Origin: an uncultured Campylobacter sp.
GTDB taxonomy: Bacteria > Campylobacterota > Campylobacteria > Campylobacterales > Campylobacteraceae
Reading direction: 5' to 3'
NCBI RefSeq assembly: GCF_937973075.1
Contig: NZ_CALBWL010000051.1
Span: 8,335 to 72,334, forward strand
Length of the DNA: 64,000 bases
Part shown: in pieces, positions 34,480 to 64,000 of the stretch
Position numbering within the stretch: position 1 is the stretch's first letter
Layout: each line of letters opens with the position of its first letter
Notes under the pieces: generated by a model
Seen by the model: only the letters and a program-made list of their open reading frames with translations
Database searches by the model: none
What the model was told of the DNA's origin: nothing
Position numbers and translations under genes: made by a program

Positions 34480-36198
34480 CTAATTTTCCTCGGCTAATTT
34501 TTTCTCTATAAATTTTAAAATTTCATCCTCGCTTACGCTCTGCCGCTTTAGACCTGCGCGAGTGATGAACTCGACGCTTTCCTCCGCTAGGGCTTTTCCC
34601 GCGAGCACGGCATACGGAAAGCCCATCAGCTCGAAGTCGTTCATCTTCACGCCAAAGCGCTCCGCGCGATCGTCCAGTAGTACGCGGATGCCGCGCTCGC
34701 GACACTGCTCGTATAGTTTTTCGGCAAATTCTACCGCTGCCGCGTCTTTGTGATTTGAGATGATGATCTCAAGCTCGAAAGGCGCCAGCTCGCGCGGCCA
34801 CACGCAGCCTTTCTCGTCATGGCTGCTTTCGATCGCCACGGCGATAAGGCGGCTTGCGCCGATGCCGTAGCAGCCCATGTAAAACGCACGAGCCTTGCCG
34901 TTTGCATCCAAAAATCGCGCTCCCATCGGCTCTGAATAGCGCGTGCCGAGCTGAAAGATATGACCCACCTCGATGCCCTTCGTGATGCCAAGCTCGCCGC
35001 CGCAGCACGGACATGCGTCGCCCGCGCCCACGGCCGCGAGATCCGCAAAGCGCGATTCGTTAAAATTTATCACGCTTGCGCCCACGTAGTGGTAATCCGG
35101 CTCGTTCGCGCCTGCGATCATCTCGCGCGCTCCTTTTAGTTCGACGTCGATATAAAATTTAGCTCCCTCGCCGAGCCCGAAAGGTCCGCAAAAGCCCGCC
35201 GTAAAGCCCACTCGCGCGATCTCCTCCTCGTTAGCATCGACTAACTCTAGCGCGCCGCAGGCATTTTGCGCCTTGGTCTCTTGCAGCTCGTCGCACCCGC
35301 GGATAAAAAACGCTACGATCTCGCTGCGATCCTCGTATAGCGCTTTTTTGATCACCGCTTTGACGGTGTAGAATTTATCCACTTTGAAAAATTCCGCCAC
35401 CGCGTCGATCGTTTTCATCGCGGGGGTTTTAAATTTCATCATGCCGTCGGTCTCGGGTGCTGCGGCGTTCGTGGTTTTGGGCGCACGGCGCGCAGCCTCG
35501 ATGTTTGCGGCATACTCGCAGCGCTTGCACACAACGATATCGTCCTCGCCGTTGTCCGCTAGCACCATAAACTCCTTGCTGCCGCTGCCGCCGATCGCGC
35601 CGCTGTCCGCATCGACCGCTCTAAAATTTAACCCCAGTCGCGTAAAAATCCGCGAGTACGCCTGCCTCATCACCTCAAACTCGCGCTTCATATCCGCAGT
35701 GTCTGCGTGGAAGCTATAGGCGTCCTTCATCGTAAATTCGCGTCCGCGCAGAAGCCCGAAGCGAGGGCGCGCCTCGTCGCGGAATTTCGTATTGATCTGA
35801 TAGATATTTAGCGGCAGCTGCTTGTAGCTCGTGATCTTATCCGCTACCATCAAAACCGCCGCTTCCTCGTTGGTAGGGCTTAGTACGAAGTCGTTATCCT
35901 TGCGATCTTTGAAGCGCAGCAGCTCCTTGCCGTATTTGGCGTAGCGACCGCTTTTTTTCCACGCATCCGCGGACGTCACGACGCTAAAAGAGACCTCCTG
36001 CGCGCCCGCAGCGTCCATCTCCTGCCTGATGACGGCGCAGATCCGCTCTAGCACTATCTTTCCTAGCGGCAAAAAATTATAAAGCCCGCTGCCCAGCTGC
36101 TCGATAAATCCCGCGCGGATCAAAAGCGCGTGGCTAGGTAGTACCGCGTCTCTGGGGGCCTCTTTTAGGCTTGGAGCGAAAAGCTTGCTAAATTTCAT
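34480..36198 (-). CDS. proS: Proline--tRNA ligase
   Basis: Class II aaRS with an editing-domain insertion (RPRFGLLRGREFTMKDAYSF, GCYGIGASR). I placed the start at MKFSKLFAP, overlapping the hemA end. Confidence 0.95.
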   Translation of the reverse strand: MKFSKLFAPSLKEAPRDAVLPSHALLIRAGFIEQLGSGLYNFLPLGKIVLERICAVIRQEMDAAGAQEVSFSVVTSADAWKKSGRYAKYGKELLRFKDRKDNDFVLSPTNEEAAVLMVADKITSYKQLPLNIYQINTKFRDEARPRFGLLRGREFTMKDAYSFHADTADMKREFEVMRQAYSRIFTRLGLNFRAVDADSGAIGGSGSKEFMVLADNGEDDIVVCKRCEYAANIEAARRAPKTTNAAAPETDGMMKFKTPAMKTIDAVAEFFKVDKFYTVKAVIKKALYEDRSEIVAFFIRGCDELQETKAQNACGALELVDANEEEIARVGFTAGFCGPFGLGEGAKFYIDVELKGAREMIAGANEPDYHYVGASVINFNESRFADLAAVGAGDACPCCGGELGITKGIEVGHIFQLGTRYSEPMGARFLDANGKARAFYMGCYGIGASRLIAVAIESSHDEKGCVWPRELAPFELEIIISNHKDAAAVEFAEKLYEQCRERGIRVLLDDRAERFGVKMNDFELMGFPYAVLAGKALAEESVEFITRAGLKRQSVSEDEILKFIEKKLAEEN

Positions 36199-37744
36199 TT
36201 TGTTTGTCCTTTTTCTCATTTTCTTGATTTAAAAATTTTTCGTAGTTTTCTTGCAGTTCAAAAATTTCGACCAGCGCGTTTACCGCGTTATCGGCATTAT
36301 CTGCGTCGCCGAGGTTTTTTAAATTTACCGTCGGAGCGTGCAGAAACGCTTTAAAAACCTGATGGATCAGCTTGCGCGCCTCCTCTGCATCGCTGTGCTT
36401 TAGATAGCCCTTTTTAAGCGCTTTGGCTAGCTCTAGCTCGGCTACTTGTTTTGCGCTTTGGCGCAAAGCCTTGATGATCGGCGTGGATGCCGCCGCCCTC
36501 AGCCATTTGAAAAACTCGTTCGTGCATTTTGCCACGATCGAATAGGCGATCTGCGCCTGCTCCTCGCGAAGCAGCAAATTTTTCTTTACGATCTCCTCCA
36601 GATCATCGACGCTGTAAACCTCGACGTCCTCGCTTTGGCTAAGCTCTACGTCGCGCGGCACGGCTATATCGAAAAAATATCGCTTAAAGCTTTTGGGTTC
36701 TAGCAAGCTATCGGTAATGATCGACTCTTGCGAGCCAGTAGCACTGAAAAATAGGCTATTTACGTTTAAGTATTTTTTGAGATTATCAAGACTATCGATT
36801 TTAATGCGGGATTGTGCCTGCGCGGAGGAATTCGCGAAGGGGGCAGAATTTTTATCGCCTTTGGAATTTTCGCCTGCTATGTGAGATTTATTGCCGTCTG
36901 TGAAAATCTTTTTATTAAAATTTACGCTGTCTTTGGAATTTTGTTTTTGCGCGACATTTTCGCCTGCGAAATTCGCGACATTTCCGGAATTTAAGCCATT
37001 TGAATTTTTTCCTGCGCCGGGATTTTCATCCGCGCAATTTTTCGCATCCAAGGAATTTTCGCCAAGCAACGAGGCGGCTAGCCTCCGCGCGCCGGCTAAA
37101 TTTCGATTTAAGATCGTGATATTTGCGCCGCTTGCGAGCAGGTGTTTGCACGCTAGCTCGCTCATCTCTCCCGCGCCCACTACCACGGCGTTTACGCCCT
37201 GCAAGGAGCCTAGCTTTTCCTTTGCCATCGCCACGGCGACGCTTGAGACCGAGATCGGGTTTTTTGAAATTTCGGTCTGGTTGCGGATGCGTGCCGCACA
37301 CTTTAGCGCTTCATCTATCGCTCTTGCGATCTGCGCGCCAGCGTGGGAGTTTTGTTTGGCAAATTTAAAGGCGTCTTTGAGTTGGCCTACGATCTGCGTT
37401 TCGCCCACTACGAGGCTGTCAAGAGAGGCTGCAACGGCGAAAAGGTGGTGTATCGCGCCGTAATCCTCGTAAATATCGGCGCGCTCGGCTAGCTCGTCGT
37501 AGCTCACGCCGCTTACGCGTGAAAGCGCCAAAAGCACGAATTTGCTGGCTGCTTTGAAGTCGCTTACGGCGGTAAAAATTTCAACGCGGTTGCAGGTGCT
37601 AAGCACCAAACACTCCTCTATCGCGGAGTTTGAAGCCAAAAGGCGCAAAATTTCTTTCTTACGCACATCGTTTGAAAACGACAGCTTCTCGCGCACCGTG
37701 ATGTCCGTGTTTTTGTGGGTGAAGCTCACGCTCATATACGCCAT
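36188..37744 (-). CDS. hemA: Glutamyl-tRNA reductase with an internal low-complexity insertion of about 84 aa
   Basis: HKNTDITVREK, STCNRVE and GETQI motifs, with GAGEMSE in the NADPH domain. The ATG at 37744 shares the A of the ispB TGA. About 90-100 aa longer than typical HemA. Confidence 0.9.
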   Translation of the reverse strand: MAYMSVSFTHKNTDITVREKLSFSNDVRKKEILRLLASNSAIEECLVLSTCNRVEIFTAVSDFKAASKFVLLALSRVSGVSYDELAERADIYEDYGAIHHLFAVAASLDSLVVGETQIVGQLKDAFKFAKQNSHAGAQIARAIDEALKCAARIRNQTEISKNPISVSSVAVAMAKEKLGSLQGVNAVVVGAGEMSELACKHLLASGANITILNRNLAGARRLAASLLGENSLDAKNCADENPGAGKNSNGLNSGNVANFAGENVAQKQNSKDSVNFNKKIFTDGNKSHIAGENSKGDKNSAPFANSSAQAQSRIKIDSLDNLKKYLNVNSLFFSATGSQESIITDSLLEPKSFKRYFFDIAVPRDVELSQSEDVEVYSVDDLEEIVKKNLLLREEQAQIAYSIVAKCTNEFFKWLRAAASTPIIKALRQSAKQVAELELAKALKKGYLKHSDAEEARKLIHQVFKAFLHAPTVNLKNLGDADNADNAVNALVEIFELQENYEKFLNQENEKKDKQNEI

Positions 37745-38736
37745 CAAAACTCCCTATCTATCATATCTCGCACGATTTGCTCCAGCTTGTCGTTTTTAAA
37801 TTCCACCACGGCTTCAAGCGCCTTTTGCCCGTAGGCGCGAGCTTCGTTTATACAGCGCTCGATGATGCCGTGCTCGCTAAGCTTCGCCTTGATCCATGAA
37901 ATTTCGCTCTGGCAGAGCTGCTTTTTAAAAAACGATTTTAGCTTTTGCCGCTCAGAATCATTTAAATTTTCGTATAGATAGATGTAGGGCAGGGTGGTTT
38001 TTCCCTCCGCAAAATCGCTCAGACTCGGCTTGCCTAGCGCTCCTGAGCTTTGCGTGACGTCTAAGATGTCGTCGATGATCTGAAAGGCAAGCCCAAGGTT
38101 TTTGCCGTATTCACCAAATTTTGCGCTCGCGCTTGAAATTTTATCATGATCTTTCGCGGCGCTTGGAATTTCGCCCTCGTTTTTTTCGCAGCTCATATCT
38201 GAAATTTCGCCGCGATTTTCCGCGCCACCGAATTTCAAAAAAGCCCCGCAGCGCGCGACCTCTTCGATTAAGGCGGAGGTTTTTAGATAGATCATCTGCA
38301 GATATTTGCTCGCATCGTCGTTGAAATCGTTGCTTAAGCTCACGTCCATCAGCTCGCCCACTGCGAGCTTCGTGACGGCGAGCGAAAGCGCAGCGGCGAT
38401 GCAGCTTTCAAATTTAGAAAGCTCAAAGTATGCCTTGGAATAGAGTATGTCGCCCAGCATCACGGCGTTTTTGGAGCCGTAAGTGGCGTTTATCGAGGGT
38501 TTGCCGCGGCGCACCGAGCTTTCGTCGATGACGTCGTCGTGCAGCAGGCTTGCGGCTTGAATTAGCTCGATGATCGCGCACAGACGCAGCGATTTTTCAT
38601 CCTTTTGCGCGATGTTTAGCAGCAGCTTGGAGCGCAGTTTTTTGCCGGGGCTTAGCTTATCAAACATCTCGCTAGCAGGCTCGTAGCCGCAGTCTGCGAT
38701 GAAGCTTTTCATAATTAAATCAATTTGATCTTGCAT
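37744..38736 (-). CDS. ispB: Polyprenyl (octaprenyl) diphosphate synthase
   Basis: First DDxxD (LLHDDVIDES) and second (FQIIDDILD). About 37 extra residues lie before the second motif. Confidence 0.88.
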   Translation of the reverse strand: MQDQIDLIMKSFIADCGYEPASEMFDKLSPGKKLRSKLLLNIAQKDEKSLRLCAIIELIQAASLLHDDVIDESSVRRGKPSINATYGSKNAVMLGDILYSKAYFELSKFESCIAAALSLAVTKLAVGELMDVSLSNDFNDDASKYLQMIYLKTSALIEEVARCGAFLKFGGAENRGEISDMSCEKNEGEIPSAAKDHDKISSASAKFGEYGKNLGLAFQIIDDILDVTQSSGALGKPSLSDFAEGKTTLPYIYLYENLNDSERQKLKSFFKKQLCQSEISWIKAKLSEHGIIERCINEARAYGQKALEAVVEFKNDKLEQIVRDMIDREF

Positions 38737-38981
38737 TATTCGTTGTTGCTTAGGATATTCCCGCTCATTTGCAAAAATTTGTCGTTTAGCTCGTCTTGTA
38801 GATCCTGCTGCGTGATGAAGCTTTCGATCTCGCGCTCGCTAATGCCGCGCGCTTTGCAGAGCCGCTCACAGGCGATGAGGCGGATTAGAGCTTCTTCGAT
38901 CTCGTTTTGCACTAAAGTAGGGCTTGCAGCGGATAAAATTTCAAAAAATTTCTCTCTTGGGCTGCCTTCAAAAATATCCAT
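38736..38981 (-). CDS. Small conserved hypothetical protein (81 aa)
   Basis: TAATG overlap with the ispB start suggests co-translation. Acidic and helical. No family recognised. Confidence 0.55.
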   Translation of the reverse strand: MDIFEGSPREKFFEILSAASPTLVQNEIEEALIRLIACERLCKARGISEREIESFITQQDLQDELNDKFLQMSGNILSNNE

Positions 38982-39336
38982 TTACCTTCCTTAAAATTTC
39001 GCGATTATAGCAAATGTAAAATTTAATTTAGGTTAGGGCGCGGCAAACTATCGGGGCTTTTAAACAGGAACGATTGCATAGATTTTGCGCTTGCGTGTGG
39101 TAAATTTTAAACTTAAGCGCGGGATTTTGAGCTTTAAATTTCATAAATTTTAAAATTTTACTTGTTTGCGAGATAGGCAGAGCGAGCGGAATTTAAAAAT
39201 TTAATCTTGGTCGCGTGGCGGATTAAACGCGAAGCTTTGCAGATAGGCGGAATTTTAAATTTACAGATAAGCGGCTTGATTTTTTGCGGAAATTTTAAAA
39301 TTTTGTGGTGCGGGTGAAATTTTAGATTTCGCATGA

Positions 39337-39440
39337 GTGGATAGAATTTCGCTTTGTTTGAGCGATAAAATTCTTGAATTTTGCGCAGGTGGAGAGGATT
39401 TTCGCTTTGTTTGTGCGGTAAAATTTTGATTTTTGCGCGG
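39337..39440. repeat. 52-bp tandem repeat, two copies, with degenerate flanks
   Basis: GTGGATAGAATTTCGCTTTGTTTGAGCGATAAAATTCTTGAATTTTGCGCAG, then GTGGAGAGGATTTTCGCTTTGTTTGTGCGGTAAAATTTTGATTTTTGCGCGG. Confidence 0.8.
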
Positions 39441-39915
39441 CGGATAAATTCTATTCTCACAAAATCTAATCGTGTGTATAACACAGATCAGGCTTTTTAA
39501 AATTTTAAAATTCCGCCGCTTTGCGAGAATTTGAAATTTCATGGACGCGGTAGAATGCTAAAATCGCGTTTGCATTAAATTTTAAGTCTGGTTTTCGAGG
39601 CAAATTTTAAATTAAGCCGCGAGAGGGCGTCTTTAAATTTTTAAAATTCCGCCCCCTTTTACAGATAGAATTTCATTTTTCGCGCAGATAAAATATCGCA
39701 TTGCAAAAGATACTTTAAAATTTTAAATTCCACTCGCGCAGATGAAATTTCGGTTTTTGTGCTAGTGGAATTTTTCGCGCAAGGATTATTTTTAAATTTA
39801 AGCTCGCTTGCGTTGCACGCGAGGATGGAATTTACTCCGTTTTAAGAGCCTAAGCGTGATTTTGCCATGCTGCAATACTACTTTTAATTAGCTATGCCTA
39901 AAAAGCCAGGCTGCT

Positions 39916-46398: not shown

Positions 46399-47417
46399 AT
46401 GAATGAGCAAAATTTAAAATATATCGCAAATTTAAAAGTGCAGGACGTGCCGTGGAGCAGGCTCACGACCGCTTACGGCAGGGCGAGCGGATTTCCCAAA
46501 ATTTTTGAGAAACTCGCACGGGCAATCGAAGCTTGTGATGCGGCGCGCGGCTTGGGCGGCGAGCAAAATTTAAAAAGCAAGCCCGGAGCAGGGCAAAATT
46601 TAAAAAGCAAGTCCGGTTGCGGGAAAAATTCTACGGATGCGACAAGATGCGGCGCGGCGCAAAATTCCATAAATTTAGCGCAAAAGAGCGAGTCCAAATT
46701 TCAAAAGGCGGATAACGAGGCTGCGAAATTTAAAGCGGGTGGAGAGACGGAGCTTAAAACGGGCACGGCGAAGTGCGGCGAGGCGGAATCTAAGAGTGCG
46801 GATGGCGCGGCGATAAAATTTAAAGCGAGCCAGGCGAGTAAATTTAAAACGAGCGCGGCGGATAAGAGCTCGGATGCGAGCGAGCGGGAAAAATTTGACG
46901 CCAAGGCCCTTCAGAACGCGCTTGATAAGATTTTTAACGAGATAGAACATCAAAGTACGCTTTGGCACGAACCCCTTTTGCGCTGCTGTTTTTGGCGCGC
47001 ATCTTTATGCAGGCGCGCGCTGCGGCGGACAAAAACGCGAATAAAAATAATCAAAACGCTGCGGCAGACGAAATCGGTGGAAATAATCAGAATGCGGCGG
47101 ATAGAAATGCGGATAAAAGCCGGCAAAATGATGCAGCGGGCTTTATCGCGGCTCGGCTCGGCGGATTTTTTGCGTTTGTGATTGAGATTTGCGATGATGC
47201 CGATAAGATCTCGCACGCAGCGCCGCTGGCGAGGTTTTCGGATATGCTTGCGGAAAAATATCTGTGGCCGCAGAGCGACGAGAATGACGAGGAGCGCTGG
47301 GAGGAGTATTTTTACGACGATGAGCTATTTTACAGCCTCTATTTTTATTCGCGGGCGGTTTTGGACGCGACGGGAGTGGACTTTGCGCAGTTTAAGCCTG
47401 GGTCGGGTGGCGTTTAA
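46399..47417 (+). pseudogene. Hypothetical gene with a low-complexity core, split by a frameshift
   Basis: ORF 46399-47181 reads plausibly to ..NEIEHQSTLWH and then becomes Arg-rich nonsense. ORF 46962-47417 continues plausibly (TPFALLFLARIF...YFYDDELFYSLYFYSRAVL). The junction is at the C/T runs at 46972-46979. Confidence 0.5.
46564..46616 (+). repeat. Direct repeat with 30-bp period (GQNLKSK units)
   Basis: CAAAATTTAAAAAGCAAGCCCGG at 46564 and CAAAATTTAAAAAGCAAGTCCGG at 46594, with one mismatch. Confidence 0.8.
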
Positions 47418-50032: not shown

Positions 50033-50599
50033 TTAGCAAATTCCGTCTGAATTTTTAATGTATCGCAAGAGCCCCTCGCAGCCGCGCTTGATATCTGCGT
50101 AGCAGCGCTCAAAATCGCGCGTGTAGTAGGGATCGGCGATTTTTAGGCGTTCGGAGGCGGTTAAATTTGAACCGGCGTCTTTTAAATTTAAGTCGGTTTG
50201 TTTTAGCGCGCCTTTAAAATTTAACGCATCGCAGTCTGTAAAATTTCCCCCTCCAAATTCCAAAAGAAATTTTACCTTAGCCATATCCTTGCCGCGAAAA
50301 ATTCGCCCCAGCGAGCGCATATTTTCATCATCCATACAAAGAATGAGATCGTAGCGCTCGTAGTCTGCGGGCGTGACCTGCACGGCGCGATGCGCTACGA
50401 GCGGCACCTTTTGCTCTTTTAGCACGCGCTGCGTTTCGTAATAGGGCGGCGAGCCGATCTCGTCGGTGTGTGTCGCCGCAGAATCTACGCTCACGCGCGC
50501 TTTAAGCTCGCTTTGATTAATAAAATTTTGCATCACGGACTGCGCCATCGGCGAGCGGCAGATGTTGCCGTGACAGACGAAAAGTAGCCTCACGCGCAC
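50033..50599 (-). CDS. Low-molecular-weight protein-tyrosine phosphatase with an insertion of about 38 aa
   Basis: GTG start. P-loop VCHGNICRSPMA (CX5R-S). The DPYY acid-loop region is preceded by extra low-complexity residues. Confidence 0.85.
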   Translation of the reverse strand: MRVRLLFVCHGNICRSPMAQSVMQNFINQSELKARVSVDSAATHTDEIGSPPYYETQRVLKEQKVPLVAHRAVQVTPADYERYDLILCMDDENMRSLGRIFRGKDMAKVKFLLEFGGGNFTDCDALNFKGALKQTDLNLKDAGSNLTASERLKIADPYYTRDFERCYADIKRGCEGLLRYIKNSDGIC

Positions 50600-53851: not shown

Positions 53852-54544
53852 GCGCGGCGATCGGTCGTAATATCGCGCGATCGGTGATTTCGATTGCGAG
53901 CATTGCGTAATTGGTGCTTTTCGACCTTGCTTTGCTTCTGTGCTCAGCGGATATGTCGCGGGCGAGAGCGTCATAAAATTTTAAAGGGACTTGATCGCGA
54001 GGCGGTGCGGACGGCGCGCAAAGCTGCGCGATGGGGCGGAATTTTGGTTTTAAAATTTCAAAGCGTGCCTGATGCTTTGCCGCATATTTTTCATAGCGCT
54101 GTTGCGGTGCGCCGTGCGGCAAAACGTGAACGGCGCACGGTGCTTAAATTTAGCGTGCGGCTAGGATATTGCGCGTATTTGAAATTTTAAATTTATGCGA
54201 TTGTGGGAGAGCTTTTTAAGCGAAATCCGCTTTTTAAATTTTAAGAATTTCAAAATTCTAAAAGATTTGGAATTTCTAAAAATTTTAAAATTTCAAGTCG
54301 TTTGAAATTTTAAAATTTAGAATTCGGGTTTAAAATTTCAAAGTTTTGGTAAAGAGGTCTGTTTGATTTGCCGTATCCGATATCTCTTGGGGTAAATTTC
54401 ATTTTATGTAAGTAGATTTCGGCGCGATTTTAAATTTTCAAAACTCGCCGGAGCTTTTATATTTGAAGGCGCAAAACCTATTTTTGGAATTTTAAAATTC
54501 CAAAATACTTAAAATTTCACATATAATTTAGCGCTAAATTTTAT

Positions 54545-56110: not shown

Positions 56111-56248
56111 ATGGTGCAAAAGATCGTTTTGTTTCTGTGCGCGGCGCTGTTTCTATGCGGCTGCTCTAGGAGCGGACCGCAAGATGTCCCAGAGCCAGAG
56201 CAAAATAAGGCACCGAGCCACCATTATACAGGCTACTATTACGCATAG
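56111..56248 (+). CDS. Small lipoprotein (45 aa)
   Basis: I placed the start at MVQKIVLFLCAALFLCGC, which follows GAAAGGAG. Lipobox LCGC. Confidence 0.5.
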   Translation: MVQKIVLFLCAALFLCGCSRSGPQDVPEPEQNKAPSHHYTGYYYA

Positions 56249-56549: not shown

Positions 56550-57407
56550 ATGACTTTAATCGACGGCAAAAGCATAAGCGCAAAGGTAAAAGAGGAGATC
56601 AAATCGGCCGCTTCGGATCTTGCCGCAAAGGGCGTAGAGCCCGCGCTGGCGGTGATTTTGGTAGGCGAGGACGCGGCTAGTAAGACCTATGTCGCGAGCA
56701 AGGAAAAAGCCTGCGCTGTCTGTGGGATCCGCTCCGTAGCGCACCGCTTGAGCTCCGACGTGAGCGAGGCGGCGCTTTTAGAACTGATAGAAAATTTAAA
56801 CGATGACGAAAGTATCGACGGCATCTTGGTGCAGTTGCCGCTTCCAAAGCACATTGATACGAATAAAATTTTAGAAAAAATAAGCCCGCAAAAGGACGTG
56901 GACGGATTTAGTGCGATAAACGTAGGCAAGCTTACTAGCGGGCTTTCGGACGGTTTTGTGCCTTGCACTCCGCTTGGCGTGATGCGCCTGCTTGAGGAAT
57001 ACGGCGTGCAGATCGCGGGCAAAAATGCCGTCGTGCTGGGTCGCAGTAATATCGTCGGAAAGCCGATGGTGAGCTTGCTTCTAAATGCCGATGCCACCGT
57101 CACTATCGCTCATAGCAAGACGAAAGACTTAAAGCGGCTTTGCGCAGACGCCGACATTTTGGTCGCGGCGGTCGGCAGAACCCGTTTTGTGGGCGCCGAT
57201 ATGGTAAAACAAGGCGCGGTGGTGATCGATGTGGGGATCAATCGCGGCGAGGACGGCAAGCTAAGAGGTGACGTCGATTTTGAAGCAGTCGCGCCAAAAT
57301 GCTCGTTCATCACACCCGTGCCCGGAGGTGTGGGGCCGATGACGATTGCGATGCTTTTGAGCAATACGATAAAATCGGCGAAAAATCGCTTAAGACAAAG
57401 AGCCTAA
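56550..57407 (+). CDS. folD: Bifunctional methylene-THF dehydrogenase/methenyl-THF cyclohydrolase
   Basis: 285 aa. Motifs ALAVILVGEDAAS.TYV, DGILVQLPLP, GRSNIVGKP and PVPGGVGPMT. Confidence 0.95.
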   Translation: MTLIDGKSISAKVKEEIKSAASDLAAKGVEPALAVILVGEDAASKTYVASKEKACAVCGIRSVAHRLSSDVSEAALLELIENLNDDESIDGILVQLPLPKHIDTNKILEKISPQKDVDGFSAINVGKLTSGLSDGFVPCTPLGVMRLLEEYGVQIAGKNAVVLGRSNIVGKPMVSLLLNADATVTIAHSKTKDLKRLCADADILVAAVGRTRFVGADMVKQGAVVIDVGINRGEDGKLRGDVDFEAVAPKCSFITPVPGGVGPMTIAMLLSNTIKSAKNRLRQRA

Positions 57408-58253
57408 ATGAAAATACTAAGCAAAATTTATAAATTTTTATCGAGTTGGACGGGGACGGTCATCGTCGTTTTATTCGTCATTCTTTTTGTTGCGCAAGCC
57501 TTCGTGATCCCCAGCGGATCGATGCGCACTACTCTTTTGGAGGGTGATTTTTTATTCGTTAAAAAATTTAGCTACGGCATCCCGACCCCGCATATTCCAT
57601 TTGTAGAGTGGCAGGTGGCTCCGGACAGCGATGGCGACGGGCATATTATCCGAGGCGAGGGTCCGAAACGCGGCGACATCGTGGTTTTTCGCTATCCGAT
57701 TAATGAAAAAATGCACTTTGTAAAGCGAAATTTTGCCGTAGGCGGCGACGAGGTGATATTTGATCTGAATAATTTCTACCTTCGTCCGCATGAAGGCGAC
57801 GAGTTCATTGCTGCGAACTATGATGCTCGCGACATTGTGATTTTAGGTGGCGAAAAATATGTCAAAGAGCCGTATAAATTTAAGGGCATTCACTACGACC
57901 CTAATGCTAGAAACTCAATGCTAACAAATGTCAAAATCGCACTTGAGAAGGGTGAGCTTTCTATGAAGCCCATTAGTCTAAGTGAAATTCCTCACAGCTT
58001 CGAAGCTGCGGGGATAAGCTTCAATGCCTTTTACATCAAAGTGCCGCAGGATGAGTATTTTATGATAGGCGATAATCGAAATAATTCCGCCGATAGCCGC
58101 TTTTGGGGTCCGGTACCTTATCGTCTGATCGTCGGTAAGCCGTGGTTTACATATTTTAGTATCGATGCCGATCGCAAGATCCGCTGGGAGCGAATCGGAC
58201 GCTTCGTCGATACCTTGCAAAACGACGAGAGCCTAATCTATGAGCAAAAATAA
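57408..58253 (+). CDS. lepB: Signal peptidase I
   Basis: 281 aa. Catalytic Ser box IPSGSM, Lys box VKR and GDNRNNSADSRFWG. Confidence 0.92.
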   Translation: MKILSKIYKFLSSWTGTVIVVLFVILFVAQAFVIPSGSMRTTLLEGDFLFVKKFSYGIPTPHIPFVEWQVAPDSDGDGHIIRGEGPKRGDIVVFRYPINEKMHFVKRNFAVGGDEVIFDLNNFYLRPHEGDEFIAANYDARDIVILGGEKYVKEPYKFKGIHYDPNARNSMLTNVKIALEKGELSMKPISLSEIPHSFEAAGISFNAFYIKVPQDEYFMIGDNRNNSADSRFWGPVPYRLIVGKPWFTYFSIDADRKIRWERIGRFVDTLQNDESLIYEQK

Positions 58254-58262
58254 GGAGCGGCA

Positions 58263-59642
58263 ATGCAAATAAATAAAATTTTCATAGCGAGCGATCACGC
58301 GGGCTTTCGTGCCAAGGAGCAAGCCAAAAAAGCGCTCGCCGCTTTAGGTTACGAAGCGGTCGATCTTGGCACGCACAGCGCAGAAGCGAGCGTGGACTAT
58401 CCCGATTTTGCGGACACACTGGCTGATAAAATTTTAGCCGAATGTGAAGCCTGCGCGCGAAGTGGAAATTTTAAAGAAAACGACGGCATAAATTCTGCTG
58501 CAGCCGCGGAAAATTCTGAAGCAGGCGGTAATAGCGGCAGCGAAAATTCCAGCGCGAGTATAAACGGTAGCGGAAATTTTAACGACGCCGTACAATGTAG
58601 CGGGAAAAATGAAAATTTTAACGTTATAAAAAATGCTAGTCGTCAAAATTTTAACGCTAGCGAAAGCATGACTACCTGCGTAAACGCAGCCGTAAGCCCG
58701 AATGCGAGCAAAGATAAAATTTTAAATTCCACCGACTACGGCATTTACGGCGTTTTGATTTGCGGTACTGGCATCGGTATCAGCATCGCTGCAAATCGCC
58801 ACGCTCACATCCGCTGCGCGCTGTGTCATGACGCGACGAGCGCTAGACTAGCTAGAGAGCACAACGACGCCAACGTCCTAGCCTTCGGCGAGCGATTAAT
58901 GGGCGCGCTGGTGATCGGAGATATGATTAGGGCGTTTTTTAGCACCGATTTTGCGGGCGGTAGGCACATTAAGCGCGTCGCAAAGCTAGGTGCTTGCGGT
59001 AGTGCGAATTGCGCGCATGGATTTGATGGGGAGAATTTCATGCAGAACTCCGCTCAAAATTTTACGGAACAAAGCTATAGCGCTAATTTAAATGGGCGGA
59101 ATTCCAAATTAAGCTTCGGTGGTAAAAATCCTTCCGACAAAAATCCTATCGACACGGATTCCGCGTCAAATTTTGCACGGAGCTTTAACGATAAAAATTC
59201 CTTATTTACCGGCGAGAATTCCTTGATAGGCTTTTGCGGTGCACGTCATATAAATTTAGATTCGACACACGCAAAGATAATCTTTAATGAGAAAAATCCG
59301 CTAGATAAAAATTCCACTAGCACAAATTCTACGTTAAATTTTACGCGCGCGAGCGTTTGCGAGAAAAATTTTGCTCAAAAAGCTAGCCGCAAATATTTTG
59401 TCGGTTTGAACCCAGCAATTATAAATTTCAAGGCTACAAATTCCGTCTGTGTGAGTGTTAAGCTAAAAAGCATGAATTGCGCTAGTGCGGGTTTAACAGA
59501 TGCGAATTCTGCTATTACGAGCGTAAATTTAAAGGAAGCAAATCTTTCTAGTGCGTATTTTAAAAACCTAAATTCTGTCTATTTTAACGCAACACCCGCT
59601 ACTATGCGCTTTGCAAATCCAAATGAAGGAGGCGAGCAATGA
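58263..59642 (+). CDS. rpiB: Ribose-5-phosphate isomerase B, expanded by an internal insertion of about 98 aa and a C-terminal extension of about 217 aa
   Basis: The RpiB/LacAB core is split: IFIASDHAGF..VDYPDFA (aa 1-60) and YGVLICGTGIGISIAANR..ANVLAFGERL..GGRHIKRV (aa 159-242). The total is 459 aa. The stop overlaps the next ATG (ATGA). Confidence 0.75.
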   Translation: MQINKIFIASDHAGFRAKEQAKKALAALGYEAVDLGTHSAEASVDYPDFADTLADKILAECEACARSGNFKENDGINSAAAAENSEAGGNSGSENSSASINGSGNFNDAVQCSGKNENFNVIKNASRQNFNASESMTTCVNAAVSPNASKDKILNSTDYGIYGVLICGTGIGISIAANRHAHIRCALCHDATSARLAREHNDANVLAFGERLMGALVIGDMIRAFFSTDFAGGRHIKRVAKLGACGSANCAHGFDGENFMQNSAQNFTEQSYSANLNGRNSKLSFGGKNPSDKNPIDTDSASNFARSFNDKNSLFTGENSLIGFCGARHINLDSTHAKIIFNEKNPLDKNSTSTNSTLNFTRASVCEKNFAQKASRKYFVGLNPAIINFKATNSVCVSVKLKSMNCASAGLTDANSAITSVNLKEANLSSAYFKNLNSVYFNATPATMRFANPNEGGEQ

Positions 59643-59881
59643 GCGTAGTATTAGGCGTTTTAGCGCTATTTTTTGCAGCACTACTTATTCTATCGATTCG
59701 AAAAAATTCTAAAATTTACGCCTTACTTCGCAAGAGCGAAGAGAGAATTTCAAAGCTTAAAAGCGATAATGAAAAGCTCAAAACTGCCCTTCGCTTCGGC
59801 ATTGAGGCCCTACAAAACGAGGAGAGCGAAAACTGCAGCTTAAAAATCCAAAACGCAAGATTGAAAAGAGGTAAGCTATGA
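59639..59881 (+). CDS. Small membrane-anchored coiled-coil protein (80 aa)
   Basis: AAGGAGG RBS. N-terminal TM segment then heptad-like KLK repeats. ATGA overlaps at both ends. Confidence 0.55.
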   Translation: MSVVLGVLALFFAALLILSIRKNSKIYALLRKSEERISKLKSDNEKLKTALRFGIEALQNEESENCSLKIQNARLKRGKL

Positions 59882-60426
59882 AAAGCCTAAGCAGCGAGCA
59901 AAAAAGCTATTTATTTCGCTCGATCCGCACCGTGCGCGACTTCCCAAAGCCCGGTATTTTGTTTTACGATATCACGACGCTCGTAGGCGATCGCGAGGCG
60001 TTTAATTTCCTGCTTGATCATCTAGCCGAGCGCTACGCCGATTACGGACTTGATTACATAGTAGGCATAGAAAGTCGCGGATTTATTTTTGCAGCGGCAC
60101 TTGCTGCGAGGTTGAGGGTCGCTTTTGTGCCAATTAGAAAGCCAAAGAAGCTTCCTTATATTACGATTTCGCAAAAATACAGCCTTGAATACGGCTTCGA
60201 TCAGGTCGAGATGCATGTGGATGCATTCTCCGGCGTGCAGGATGCCAAGGTGCTGCTAATTGACGATCTTATCGCCACCGGAGGCACGGCGCGCGCGGCA
60301 TTAGATCTCATCGCGCAGACGCAGGCCAAGTGCGTCGAGGCGTGCTTTTTATTAAATTTGCGCGAGTTAAACGATCTAGGCGAATTTTCGCGCCGCACAA
60401 ACGTTTATTGCGTTTTAGAGGCGTAA
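59878..60426 (+). CDS. apt: Adenine phosphoribosyltransferase
   Basis: 182 aa. FPKPGILFYDIT, and PRPP motif VLLIDDLIATGGTA. Confidence 0.93.
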   Translation: MKSLSSEQKSYLFRSIRTVRDFPKPGILFYDITTLVGDREAFNFLLDHLAERYADYGLDYIVGIESRGFIFAAALAARLRVAFVPIRKPKKLPYITISQKYSLEYGFDQVEMHVDAFSGVQDAKVLLIDDLIATGGTARAALDLIAQTQAKCVEACFLLNLRELNDLGEFSRRTNVYCVLEA

Positions 60427-60428
60427 TT

Positions 60429-61046
60429 TTGGAAGAGCTACTTAAAAATTTATTACAAGAATACCACCAATACGCCTATATCGTGCTTTTTGTTTGGTGT
60501 ATTTTAGAAGGCGAAATCGCACTGATTTTAGGCGGCATAATGGCGCACGAGGGGCACATAAATTTGCCGCTAGGTATCTTTGTCGCGGGTCTTGGGGCAT
60601 TTTGCGGCGATCAGTTTTATTTTTATATCGGTCGCTACAACAAAAAATATATCAGTAAAAAGCTCGCGGCGCAGCGCCGAAAATTTGCGATTGCACACCT
60701 ACTTTTGCAACGCTACGGCTGGCCGATAATTTTAATGCAGCGCTATATGTATGGCTTCCGCGTCATCATCCCGATGAGTATCGGTATAACTCGCTACAGC
60801 GCAAAGAAATTTGCGATTATCAATCTTTTTAGCGCTTGGTGCTGGTCGGGTGCGACGATGGTTTTAGCGTGGTATTTCGGCGAGGAGATCTGGAGCGGGC
60901 TGCGGCTAATCGAGCAACACTGGTATTTTGCGATACCTATCATAGGTGGAATTTTATATCTATTTTTTAGGTTATTTAAACGTATGGAAAATCACTTTAT
61001 GAACTCACGAAAGGAACGAGATGAAAGTAAAACTGCTAGATCGTAA
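60429..61046 (+). CDS. DedA-family membrane protein
   Basis: I chose TTG at 60429 (GAGG 7 nt upstream), just past the apt stop. The upstream part of ORF 60330 overlaps apt. LEGEIALILGG is the DedA motif. Confidence 0.75.
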   Translation: MEELLKNLLQEYHQYAYIVLFVWCILEGEIALILGGIMAHEGHINLPLGIFVAGLGAFCGDQFYFYIGRYNKKYISKKLAAQRRKFAIAHLLLQRYGWPIILMQRYMYGFRVIIPMSIGITRYSAKKFAIINLFSAWCWSGATMVLAWYFGEEIWSGLRLIEQHWYFAIPIIGGILYLFFRLFKRMENHFMNSRKERDESKTARS

Positions 61047-63585: not shown

Positions 63586-64000
63586 ATTTGCGCTGCATTC
63601 GAGCGAAATTTAAAATTTTACGGAGTTTTAATTTACGCCGAATTTGCACACCCGATTCAAATTTTTAAATTTGCGAAATTTGAATTTCTATGGCGTGTGA
63701 GAATTTGAAAATTTAAAAATTTTGGTTGAAAGCAGCGATTTAAAATTTTGAAATTTCATAAAAAATTCCCGGGATCGAACGTATGCTCGGGTTCGGCTCG
63801 ATTTTAAAATTATATAAATTTAACTCGCGCAGGATGGAACTTTGAATATTATCGTAAGCAAGCTCAACTTTACAATTCTATGCACTTTAATCCGCTGTAC
63901 CTTTCGGTGGCGAATTTTGCGCACGGACTATAGATATGAATCTTTTGCCAAAATCCGAAGCTAAAAGTAAAATCACGAGCAGAATCGAAAATTTAAGCGT

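Follow-up and report, generated by a model that had tools for sequence, protein, structure and literature searches.

Among the closest described counterparts of the sequence analyzed here are the uptake sequences of Pasteurellaceae (USS) and Neisseria (DUS), short words which are over-represented genome-wide and conserved as DNA and which, inside genes, favor certain reading frames and weakly conserved stretches of proteins, with inflation of the peptides they encode (Findlay & Redfield 2009, PMC2817400); the hexamer RAATTY shares these properties. Within the genus, methylated RAATTY (CtsM) is needed for DNA uptake in C. jejuni (PMC10046745), and a RAATTY methylase, cfeMI, is universal in C. 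fetus (PMC13436318). These systems and the one described below have hexamer and genus in common. RAATTY is nevertheless unlike USS and DUS, which are about 9–12 bp long: it is a 6-bp degenerate palindrome, it is read through m6A in C. jejuni, and at the present locus it clusters in filler whose addition triples a protein, and not in codons already there.

Rickettsia palindromic elements (RPEs) are reportedly found in frame in protein-coding genes. As would be the case for the inserts in rpiB, they are non-genic DNA in frame in housekeeping genes, translated and tolerated in surface loops; however, each RPE is a distinct mobile element of set length that conforms to a family consensus, whereas rpiB contains no repeated element, shares only words of 14–24 nt and appears to change length by slippage. 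Housekeeping proteins of Plasmodium falciparum carry Asn-rich low-complexity inserts which, like those of rpiB, are rich in AAT codons, lie between conserved enzyme blocks, are attributed to slippage within A/T-rich sequence, evolve rapidly and are polymorphic in length. Unlike these, rpiB belongs to a bacterium of 47% GC, a conserved palindromic hexamer punctuates its inserts, and one of its segments bridges to the next cistron. Coupled overlapping genes, finally, resemble rpiB in that a stop overlaps the next start and the RBS lies in the upstream coding sequence, overlaps being conserved along lepB-rpiB-orf80-apt; in contrast to ordinary coupled genes, ~215 otherwise unconstrained codons are apparently open merely to reach the junction. 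A literature search returned nothing on RAATTY or low-complexity inserts in C. gracilis, C. rectus, C. showae, C. curvus or C. concisus, no report of RAATTY enrichment, DNA-level conservation or in-frame accumulation, and no C. gracilis methylome.

An enlarged rpiB in C. gracilis and its relatives

The rpiB gene, which encodes a small enzyme of sugar metabolism, is enlarged about three-fold in the oral bacterium Campylobacter gracilis and its relatives. We analyzed it within a stretch of 64,000 nucleotides (hereafter the window), to which all positions refer (Table 1). Pfam LacAB_rpiB (PF02502) matched the rpiB product in two stretches (E 9e-46; 155.7 bits versus a cut-off of 24.7), and a PDB sequence search returned 19 solved RpiB/LacB chains at E <= 1e-10. 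The solved RpiB 3HE8 aligned only to residues 5–61 and 163–244, so that residues 62–162 stand in for two residues of the normal 149-aa protein, and the RpiB homology ended at about residue 244 (58994). D11, H12, C167, G168, T169, N201, R234, H235 and R238, which we take to be catalytic or substrate-binding residues from general knowledge of RpiB, were invariant among 58 sequences and also align to 3HE8; the motifs concerned are an N-terminal SDH, ICGTG with the catalytic Cys, HNDAN and GGRH.

A preliminary description of this DNA gave ~145–150 aa as normal for RpiB. Solved structures comprise 148–179 aa and the nearest normal Campylobacter RpiB has 149 aa, and the 459-aa product is not the single compact domain of ~145–170 residues expected of the family. 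Judged by these matches, it is a member of the RpiB/LacAB family by its core and atypical in its architecture. The preliminary description had proposed an intact core split just before the GVLICGTGIG strand, with added segments at 58443–58736 and 58989–59639; the Pfam and 3HE8 alignments bear this out, and the positions are correct to within a few codons.

Table 1. Features of the rpiB locus, in window positions
Feature	Position	Strand	Remarks
lepB (signal peptidase I)	57408..58253	+	Pfam Peptidase_S26; 9 nt upstream of rpiB
rpiB ORF	58263..59642	+	459 codons plus stop; intact in 45/45 complete orthologues (417-469 aa)
RpiB core, N-terminal part (residues 1-61; D11, H12)	58263..58445	+	aligns to 3HE8 residues 2-58; dN/dS 0.13
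In-frame insert (residues 62-162), loop before catalytic-Cys strand	58446..58748	+	no alignment to solved RpiB structures
RpiB core, C-terminal part (residues 163-244; ICGTG, HNDAN, GGRH)	58749..58994	+	aligns to 3HE8 residues 61-142; dN/dS 0.05
C-terminal extension (residues 245-459), ~215 codons	58995..59639	+	read as translated spacer; dN/dS 0.50
24 phase-locked RAATTY sites	58466..59575	.	8 in insert, 16 in extension, all nnR-AAT-TYn
RAATTY starts, insert	58466, 58490, 58511, 58544, 58574, 58613, 58646, 58724		
RAATTY starts, extension	59033, 59057, 59099, 59168, 59195, 59216, 59252, 59309, 59324, 59336, 59366, 59423, 59438, 59504, 59525, 59570		
RBS AAGGAGG (59626-59632) and overlapping stop/start ATGA (59639-59642)	59626..59642	+	joins rpiB to orf80
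orf80, small membrane/coiled-coil protein	59639..59881	+	80 aa in 43/46 sequences
apt (adenine phosphoribosyltransferase)	59878..60426	+	Pfam Pribosyltran; last gene of packed lepB-rpiB-orf80-apt block

Asn, Ser and Ala make up 18, 16 and 14% of the insert and 15, 12 and 11% of the extension, in which Phe and Lys reach 7% each. Residues 62 to ~146 of the insert varied in sequence and length among orthologues, and residues 147–162 were conserved. Mean 5-mer log-odds (noncoding over coding) amounted to +0.24 in the extension and to +0.13 in the insert, compared with +0.27 to +0.29 for spacers and -0.20 +/- 0.12 (maximum +0.15) for coding windows. The earlier proposal that both segments are made of spacer material thus holds at the level of 5-mer composition, but its wording in terms of units was loose, as the words named, GAAAATTC, GGAAATTTT and AAAATTTTAAC, are each found only two times in rpiB and are not peculiar to spacers.

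A mobile repeat element (RPE/MITE-like) was rejected as an explanation, since comparison of the insert and extension with the window (blastn-short) gave only matches of 14–24 nt and Tandem Repeats Finder only one 15-nt x2 repeat. A phase-variable contingency gene was likewise rejected: no homopolymer or short tandem tract was found, and orthologue lengths differ by whole codons, none being frameshifted. Rfam gave no match at E <= 0.1 over positions 57000–61000.

Open frame and near-neutral peptide of the added segments

To retrieve orthologues, species-level genomes of the C. gracilis group were searched as raw DNA by tblastn; 45 of the orthologues were complete. In each of these the frame was open to the same C-terminus, with none of the stops or frameshifts near residue 245 that the preliminary description had named as contrary evidence; going by these orthologues, the enlarged rpiB is not an assembly artefact. 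The orthologues also show that insert length varies, a point raised earlier: deletions of 11–46 codons and one 11-codon insertion were present in the insert. We observed that indels end at short direct repeats, the deletions lying exactly between AAAATTTTAAC or TATTTTAA repeats. The extension had only three small indels among 46 sequences (with one 8-codon deletion). Among 1.8 billion representatives it occurred in a single cluster at 50% identity, and low-complexity inserts were found at the same RpiB loop in at least four lineages.

The coding frame contained no stop in either segment, compared with 1–14 (insert) and 5–23 (extension) in the other five frames, which agrees with the earlier description of a stop-free frame amid stop-rich ones. 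In Markov-1 simulations, stop-free sequences arose by chance in 0.14% of cases for the insert and in 0 of 20000 for the extension. Moreover, nonsense changes were absent from the extension among at least 310 substitution events, as compared to at least 6–10 expected under neutrality (P between 1.6e-3 and 3.6e-5). This selection on the frame suggests that the full-length, 49-kDa product is made. Under an alternative reading, expression of the long ORF would yield only a short product, by way of unrecognised frameshifting, termination or proteolytic trimming, and the open frame would be a by-product of motif phase. The phase-locked AAT-TYN motifs indeed create no stops themselves; however, they account for no more than ~96 of the 648 nt of the extension, and the remainder would gain stops, of which there are none in 45 lineages. 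Together with length differences in whole codons only, the lack of any orthologue stop near residue 245 and the absence of a + strand terminator-like site within the extension, this makes a short product very improbable. Promoter-like and terminator-like counts were at shuffle level; no promoter-like site was found on the + strand inside the extension, whose sole terminator-like site lies on the minus strand, and no terminator-like site was found on the + strand within rpiB.

With respect to the peptide itself, diversity at the first, second and third codon positions was 0.090, 0.103 and 0.106 in the extension, compared with 0.020, 0.013 and 0.126 in the C-terminal core, at a dS of 0.18 and 0.18–0.22, respectively. 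Omitting the motif codons left dN/dS of the extension at 0.49. Transitions and transversions in the extension stood at 191:35, and a neutral simulation with rejection of stops and a kappa of 10, the observed transition bias, returned a dN/dS of 0.56, a value to be read with the caveat that the high transition bias behind it could partly reflect amino-acid selection. The extension peptide evolves about neutrally and is nearly unconstrained, and the RAATTY words are the conserved part, a main point which the preliminary description had overlooked.

These values bear on the idea that the extension is a folded domain of specific function fused to RpiB. Such a domain could account for a long conserved ORF, and the last ~110 residues show some hydrophobic patterning and score slightly higher in structure prediction. 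On the other hand, the extension had no Pfam match (E <= 0.01) and no PDB sequence match beyond RpiB and is known from a single cluster; its diversity is equal at the three codon positions and its dN/dS is at the neutral level, Phe and Ser, a radical exchange, replace each other at sites conserved as DNA, and the 8-codon deletion is tolerated. A folded domain is consequently very improbable. AlphaFold2 with a 58-sequence alignment gave a mean pLDDT of 29, with 33–38 for the last ~110 residues and 24–30 for the true C-terminal core itself, and because the real core is so poorly predicted, the low values of the insert and extension carry no information on these segments. Both added segments are presumably disordered.

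RAATTY is conserved as DNA

RAATTY occurred 686 times in the window versus 222 +/- 14 expected (~3-fold), and it was enriched 3.1-fold in 104 kb of related loci. Among NAATTN hexamers only RAATTY was enriched (GAATTT 2.0-fold; CAATTT and TAATTT 0.36–0.44), AAATTT being the dominant member of the class. Its density was 22 per kb in noncoding DNA and 7.5 per kb in coding DNA (all listed ORFs, rpiB included), compared with 19.6 per kb in the rpiB ORF (27 sites) and ~25 per kb in the two added segments (24 sites in ~950 nt); the C-terminal core had none. Across Campylobacter relatives ranging from 29 to 51% GC, the density was ~8–10 per kb.

Each rpiB site was present in 34–46 of 46 orthologues. 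Diversity at the four AATT positions was 0.017, 0.000, 0.007 and 0.027, as compared to 0.08–0.21 in the flanks, and the outer positions varied within their class only, R being A or G and Y being T or C, the latter freely switching Phe and Ser. The Asn codon at these sites was AAT in 1069 cells and AAC in 0 of 1084, whereas the other Asn codons of the same two segments had AAT:AAC at 566:369. AATT was the lowest-diversity 4-mer of the added segments (0.017 versus a mean of 0.119). In spacers, diversity was 0.047–0.072 inside RAATTY and 0.19–0.21 outside, and at A/T third positions of the ordinary genes tested it was 0.042 in RAATTY versus 0.111 elsewhere (P = 0.0036); some RAATTY sites of the hemA insert were poorly kept. 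Like uptake sequences, the word is over-represented and is conserved as DNA beyond coding need. The orthologue sequences indicate that selection protects RAATTY and the open frame in the added segments, and not the amino-acid sequence. N-glycosylation sequons (D/E-x-N-x-S/T, e.g. DKNST) behind the conserved Asn were rejected, as amino-acid selection cannot account for the total absence of AAC and RpiB, as read from its sequence, has no signal peptide.

A local mutation rate, or DNA binding and curvature (A3T3 tracts, nucleoid protein sites), might produce such conservation in place of methylation or uptake. A/T-only words are generally less diverse than G/C-rich words, but AATT at 0.017 lies 3–4 fold under AAAA, TAAA and ATAA (0.057–0.070). 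RAATTY spacing in noncoding DNA peaked at 7–8, 24–27, 33–34 and 41–44 nt, which hints at structural phasing, yet it was irregular inside rpiB; and although AAATTT dominates the motif class, the exact R...Y specificity fits the known methylase better than curvature. We therefore regard this alternative as unlikely.

By analogy with C. jejuni, RAATTY may be conserved as a word for m6A methylation and for self-recognition in DNA uptake. One could go further and suppose that it is a genus-wide uptake word read via m6A, whose density of ~10 per kb is held by selection or uptake-biased drive, and that coding DNA of lineages whose GC content rose to 47–58% falls short of this density, giving rise to reservoirs in the form of long RAATTY-rich spacers and, wherever a spacer comes to lie within an operon or gene, of translated in-frame filler. 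We put this forward only tentatively, as possible but doubtful; if true, rpiB, hemA, ispB and others would be enlarged as a proteome-level cost of the uptake signal. The data point to strong selection on RAATTY at the DNA level in Campylobacter other than C. jejuni, which had not been reported before, and raise the hypothesis of a methylation-read uptake signal shaping both intergenic DNA and the proteome.

All 24 sites of the rpiB added segments share one codon phase, compared with 136/100/108 across the phases in other genes. The same phase was found for 10/10 sites in the hemA insert, 10/12 in lineage L136 and 3/3 in lineage L138. Stop avoidance was rejected as the cause, since stop hazards are similar in all three phases given the flanking consensus; the preference for nnR-AAT-TYn over RAA-TTY is not accounted for by it alone. 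We favor as a candidate reason that Asn-Ser/Phe/Leu would be the most tolerable translation. In the inserts, 46% of motif sites had C (Ser) as Y, versus 14% in noncoding DNA.

The junction with orf80 and a putative translated spacer

The junction described earlier, AAGGAGG followed by ATGA, was confirmed: 44 of 46 sequences retain ATGA at the rpiB/orf80 boundary, the other two having TAATG, and the orf80 stop overlaps the apt start (ATGA) in 45 of 46. The folD-lepB-rpiB order is kept in other Campylobacter. In a Campylobacter whose rpiB is normal, orf110, a homologue of orf80, follows rpiB, and a 10-nt overlap of rpiB with the next gene was seen in a normal Campylobacter. The extension of sister lineage L056 is a different one of 65 codons, and it too reaches the same start through ATGA. 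L138 carries at this junction a stand-alone 218-codon, stop-free, RAATTY-rich ORF with ATGA overlaps at both ends; no homology of this ORF to the C. gracilis extension was found (BLASTP E >= 0.35), and, compared with rpiB, a separate filler ORF seems to do the same bridging job.

An overlapping ATGA with an RBS inside the upstream ORF, conserved in relatives, is the architecture of coupling, and it suggests that translational coupling and the avoidance of polarity are what keeps the frame open. In L136, however, there is no extension and the spacer after rpiB sits behind a normal stop, so that an open frame at the junction is not obligatory, which weakens the coupling argument. If the frame is open solely so as to supply the next cistron with ribosomes, it would be an unusually long case of translation kept for coupling rather than for product.

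Overall, we consider it probable that the added rpiB segments are a translated spacer, that is, slippage-made RAATTY-rich DNA tolerated in frame, the frame being kept on account of coupling and of the RpiB half that lies downstream. RAATTY-rich DNA typical of the long intergenic regions of this lineage would accumulate inside rpiB, at a surface loop preceding the catalytic strand, as well as between the gene and its downstream neighbor, and segment length would change when short direct repeats that contain RAATTY slip or recombine. Only in-frame versions of the insert would survive because it precedes the essential RpiB half, and only in-frame versions of the extension because it must lead ribosomes to orf80-apt, whose start lies in the overlapping ATGA. 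Selection would accordingly act in three layers: strongly, at the protein level, on the RpiB core; against stops and frameshifts only in the added segments, whose amino acids otherwise drift about neutrally; and as purifying selection at the DNA level on each RAATTY hexamer, fitted in the phase reading Asn-Ser/Phe/Leu. The earlier central reading, an intact RpiB with in-frame spacer-like RAATTY-rich DNA read through to the next gene, is supported by the orthologue comparison.

The locus offers a clean natural case separating selection on protein, open reading frame and DNA word. A bacterial housekeeping enzyme can apparently bear an essentially neutral peptide of ~300 codons in dozens of lineages at the species level, which matters for genome annotation, structure prediction and estimates of 'protein' conservation.

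The added segments could instead be functional disordered regions (a solubility tag, tether or spacer) with selected composition and length, the tail being useful in itself and not for coupling. The tightly kept length of the extension, the excess of Ser at motif sites, which suggests an amino-acid filter, and the recurrence of inserts at the same RpiB loop would suit such a function. We nevertheless think it has a small chance of being correct: dN/dS equals the neutral expectation, 46 of ~100 insert codons can be lost, and the tail is a mere 65 codons in the sister lineage and missing altogether from L136. Furthermore, inserts similar to those of rpiB are carried by hemA, ispB and a phosphatase gene, and their presence in unrelated enzymes suggests a process of the genome at large and not a need peculiar to RpiB.

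Anatomy and reading frame of the enlarged rpiB

Pfam analysis of the 459-residue rpiB product detected one family alone, LacAB_rpiB, as two stretches. The solved C. thermocellum RpiB (3HE8, 149 aa) aligned with residues 5–61 and 163–244, indicating that approximately 100 residues stand where RpiB has a 2-residue loop, directly before the ICGTG strand, and that approximately 215 residues lie beyond the end of the RpiB fold. The ORF, the Pfam match and this alignment agree to within a few codons with the preliminary description of an RpiB core carrying an insert and an extension. An AAGGAGG sequence is found within the final rpiB codons, the rpiB stop overlaps the ATG of orf80, an 80-codon membrane/coiled-coil ORF, and the stop of orf80 in turn overlaps the start of apt. 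In a species-level search (one genome per species) 55 loci were retrieved, every title being Campylobacter gracilis or uncultured Campylobacter; the window derives from the C. gracilis group, and its GC content (∼47%) is near that of the type strain (46.55%; PMC4574385).

Orthologous loci were collected by tblastn on raw DNA, and the sample is thus free of ORF-calling bias. All 45 orthologues complete on their contig run from MQINKIFI to NPNEGGEQ followed by the stop codon, with zero internal stops and a length of 417–469 aa, which means that their length differences consist of whole codons only. More than 120 additional protein clusters (83–100% identity) measure 445–469 aa. Within the extension, the coding frame holds 0 stops versus 5–23 in each of the five other frames, and a Markov-1 simulation yielded 0/20000 stop-free extensions. 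Moreover, at least 310 substitution events in the extension across orthologues created 0 stops, compared to at least 6–10 expected under neutrality (P between 1.6e-3 and 3.6e-5 for the absence of nonsense changes). The 45 open orthologues and these stop statistics rule out both an assembly artefact as the cause of the long rpiB and a hidden stop near residue 245, where no orthologue showed a stop or frameshift. The earlier proposal of an enlarged, read-through RpiB is therefore supported, and the length of the insert, for which variation among orthologues had been raised, does vary.

Selection on the added segments

The rpiB core is under strong purifying selection, as illustrated by the diversity at the three codon positions of its C-terminal part (0.020, 0.013 and 0.126), whereas selection on the added segments is confined to the removal of stops and frameshifts and to the RAATTY words. 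In the extension, nucleotide diversity is equal across codon positions (0.090, 0.103 and 0.106), dS (0.18) is the same as in the core, transitions outnumber transversions 191:35, and dN/dS (NG86) is 0.50, or 0.49 without motif codons. A neutral simulation rejecting stops alone (kappa 10) gave a dN/dS of 0.56, indicating that amino-acid changes in the extension accumulate at about the neutral rate. Variation is greater still in the insert, where deletions remove up to 46 codons.

The RAATTY words behave differently from the peptide. All 24 sites in the insert and extension lie in phase nnR-AAT-TYn and read x-Asn-Phe/Leu/Ser; elsewhere among the window's genes, the sites are spread over the three phases as 136, 100 and 108. 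Over the 46 sequences compared, the four AATT positions show a diversity of 0.017, 0.000, 0.007 and 0.027 versus 0.08–0.21 in the flanks, R undergoes A/G changes only, and Y undergoes T/C changes only, exchanging Phe and Ser. In 1069 cells the motif Asn codon is AAT, and it is never AAC, whereas non-motif Asn codons of the same segments show an AAT:AAC ratio of 566:369 and a third-position diversity of 0.165. When every sequence serves in turn as the reference, AATT ranks first in conservation among the 4-mers of the two segments (0.017 versus a mean of 0.119). The absence of a synonymous change alongside the free exchange of radically different amino acids marks selection that acts on DNA and not on protein. 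Y is T at 86% of noncoding sites, and C (Ser for Phe) at 46% in inserts, an enrichment indicating that insert material was filtered for tolerable amino acids.

Going beyond the preliminary description, the rpiB additions are best read as translated spacer, whose conserved features are the open frame and the DNA motif. RAATTY would be kept as a methylation and self-recognition word, by analogy with C. jejuni, in which CtsM-methylated RAATTY is needed for DNA uptake (PMC10046745); all C. fetus retain the RAATTY methylase (PMC13436318). A mutational or DNA-structural cause may also underlie AATT conservation, but the exact R…Y specificity points to a sequence-reading protein. The nearest described analogue of such a retained word is found in USS/DUS uptake sequences, which build up in certain reading frames and in those parts of proteins that are poorly conserved (PMC2817400). 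The locus resembles features of known kinds: coding DNA that holds uptake or methylation words, low-complexity inserts kept in frame, and translational coupling.

Junction states and other insert-bearing genes

We infer that the whole 459-residue RpiB is made, the additions forming flexible surface appendages. The insert would have to remain in frame since it precedes the catalytic half of RpiB, and the extension since ribosomes must arrive at the overlapping orf80 start, either for coupling or for avoidance of polarity. Four states of the rpiB 3′ junction were distinguished among the lineages compared. In L137, with a normal 149-aa RpiB, rpiB and the next gene overlap by 10 nt, while in L136 a normal rpiB stop is followed by an untranslated RAATTY-rich spacer, so that an open frame up to the next gene is not obligatory. 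L138 carries a stand-alone 218-codon ORF that separates rpiB from the small membrane gene and is made of repeats rich in RAATTY (GC 0.29, 67 sites per kb, internal tandem duplication). This ORF has no internal stop, versus 6–40 in other frames, and an ATGA overlap at each end, and looks like a filler cistron. Finally, the C-terminal extension measures 65 codons in L056, the sister lineage of the C. gracilis group, and ∼215 in the group itself, with ATGA on the same start in both. The L056 and L138 states support the ribosome-delivery reading of the extension.

rpiB is the extreme example among insert-bearing genes, not the sole one (see table). The hemA insert has 10/10 RAATTY sites in phase nnR-AAT-TYn, exists as two very different alleles inside the C. 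gracilis group and is absent from relatives at 68% identity. The 260-codon ORF may represent more translated filler, or no gene at all. In other Campylobacter-like lineages the same RpiB loop holds unrelated low-complexity inserts (proteins of 182, 190, 271 and 282 aa), and RpiB inserts show the nnR-AAT-TYn phase at 10/12 sites in L136 and 3/3 in L138.

Features of the window, and one of locus L138, bearing on the proposed translated spacer DNA
Feature	Position	Strand	Description
rpiB ORF	58263..59642	+	enlarged RpiB
hemA (glutamyl-tRNA reductase) ORF	36188..37747	minus	Asn-rich insert 36812-37063, 84 codons; divides NAD-binding domain
Polyprenyl synthase	37744-38736	minus	short Asn/Ser/Phe-rich in-frame insert approx. 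38092-38235; Pfam match in two pieces
Low-molecular-weight phosphotyrosine phosphatase	50033-50599	minus	short Asn/Ser/Phe-rich in-frame insert approx. 50144-50251; profile match ends at position 112 of 144
260-codon ORF	46399-47181	+	without Pfam match; middle low-complexity (QNLKSK, KNS, KFK motifs)
Small ORF	56111-56248	+	in spacer upstream of folD; lipoprotein-type signal (MVQKIVLFLCAALFLCGCS...)
218-codon ORF	L138:691-1347		between rpiB and small membrane gene

RAATTY across the window and origin of the added DNA

The RAATTY signal is general and extends beyond rpiB. The window contains 686 sites versus 222 ± 14 expected, at densities per kb of 22 in noncoding DNA, 7.5 in coding DNA and ∼25 in the rpiB insert and extension. 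Only four of the sixteen NAATTN hexamers, those of the RAATTY class, reach or exceed expectation (AAATTT 5.1-fold enriched, GAATTT/AAATTC 2.0-fold), the other twelve standing at 0.14–0.44 of it. AATT outside the RAATTY context is strongly depleted, to 0.34 of expectation in the window and 0.06 in one 49%-GC relative, which could reflect avoidance of unmethylatable AATT; the share of AATT within RAATTY is 83% here, 83–96% in high-GC Campylobacter relatives and 35–40% in outgroups. Motif conservation was also observed in aligned spacers upstream of folD (diversity 0.047–0.072 at motif positions versus 0.19–0.21 outside) and at A/T third positions of ordinary genes in the 9.4-kb neighbourhood (0.042 in the AATT core versus 0.111 elsewhere, P = 0.0036). 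Metagenomic relatives ranked by hemA identity maintain 7.6–10 sites per kb despite a GC content of 29 to 51%, observed/expected climbing from 1.3 to 3.1, and distant outgroups are unenriched (3.4–4.4 per kb).

As to the source of the additions, a search for a discrete repeated element found none, the rest of the window sharing only 14–24 nt words with them. Orthologue indels end at short direct repeats, as expected of slippage or of recombination at short homologies. Two copies of AAAATTTTAAC exactly bound a deletion of 33 nt, two copies of TATTTTAA bound one of 24 nt, and AATTTTA flanks a gain of 11 codons. The extension and the hemA insert resemble spacers in 5-mer composition and score above every ordinary coding window; the rpiB insert leans noncoding, yet falls barely within the coding range.

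The small ORF upstream of folD has a diversity of 0.153, nearer the surrounding spacer (0.19–0.21) than neighbouring genes (0.052), and may thus be no conserved gene. The coding share of the window is only ∼78%, and long spacers (e.g. 38737-39915, 53852-54544 and 63586-64000) carry 22 RAATTY per kb with the extended consensus T-W-AAATTT-W-A. Distances between spacer motif pairs peak at 7–8, 24–27, 33–34 and 41–44 nt, suggesting short repeat units or structural phasing. Over the whole window, the GATC hexamers CGATCT/AGATCG, CAGATC/GATCTG and ACGATC/GATCGT occur ∼3-fold above first-order Markov expectation.
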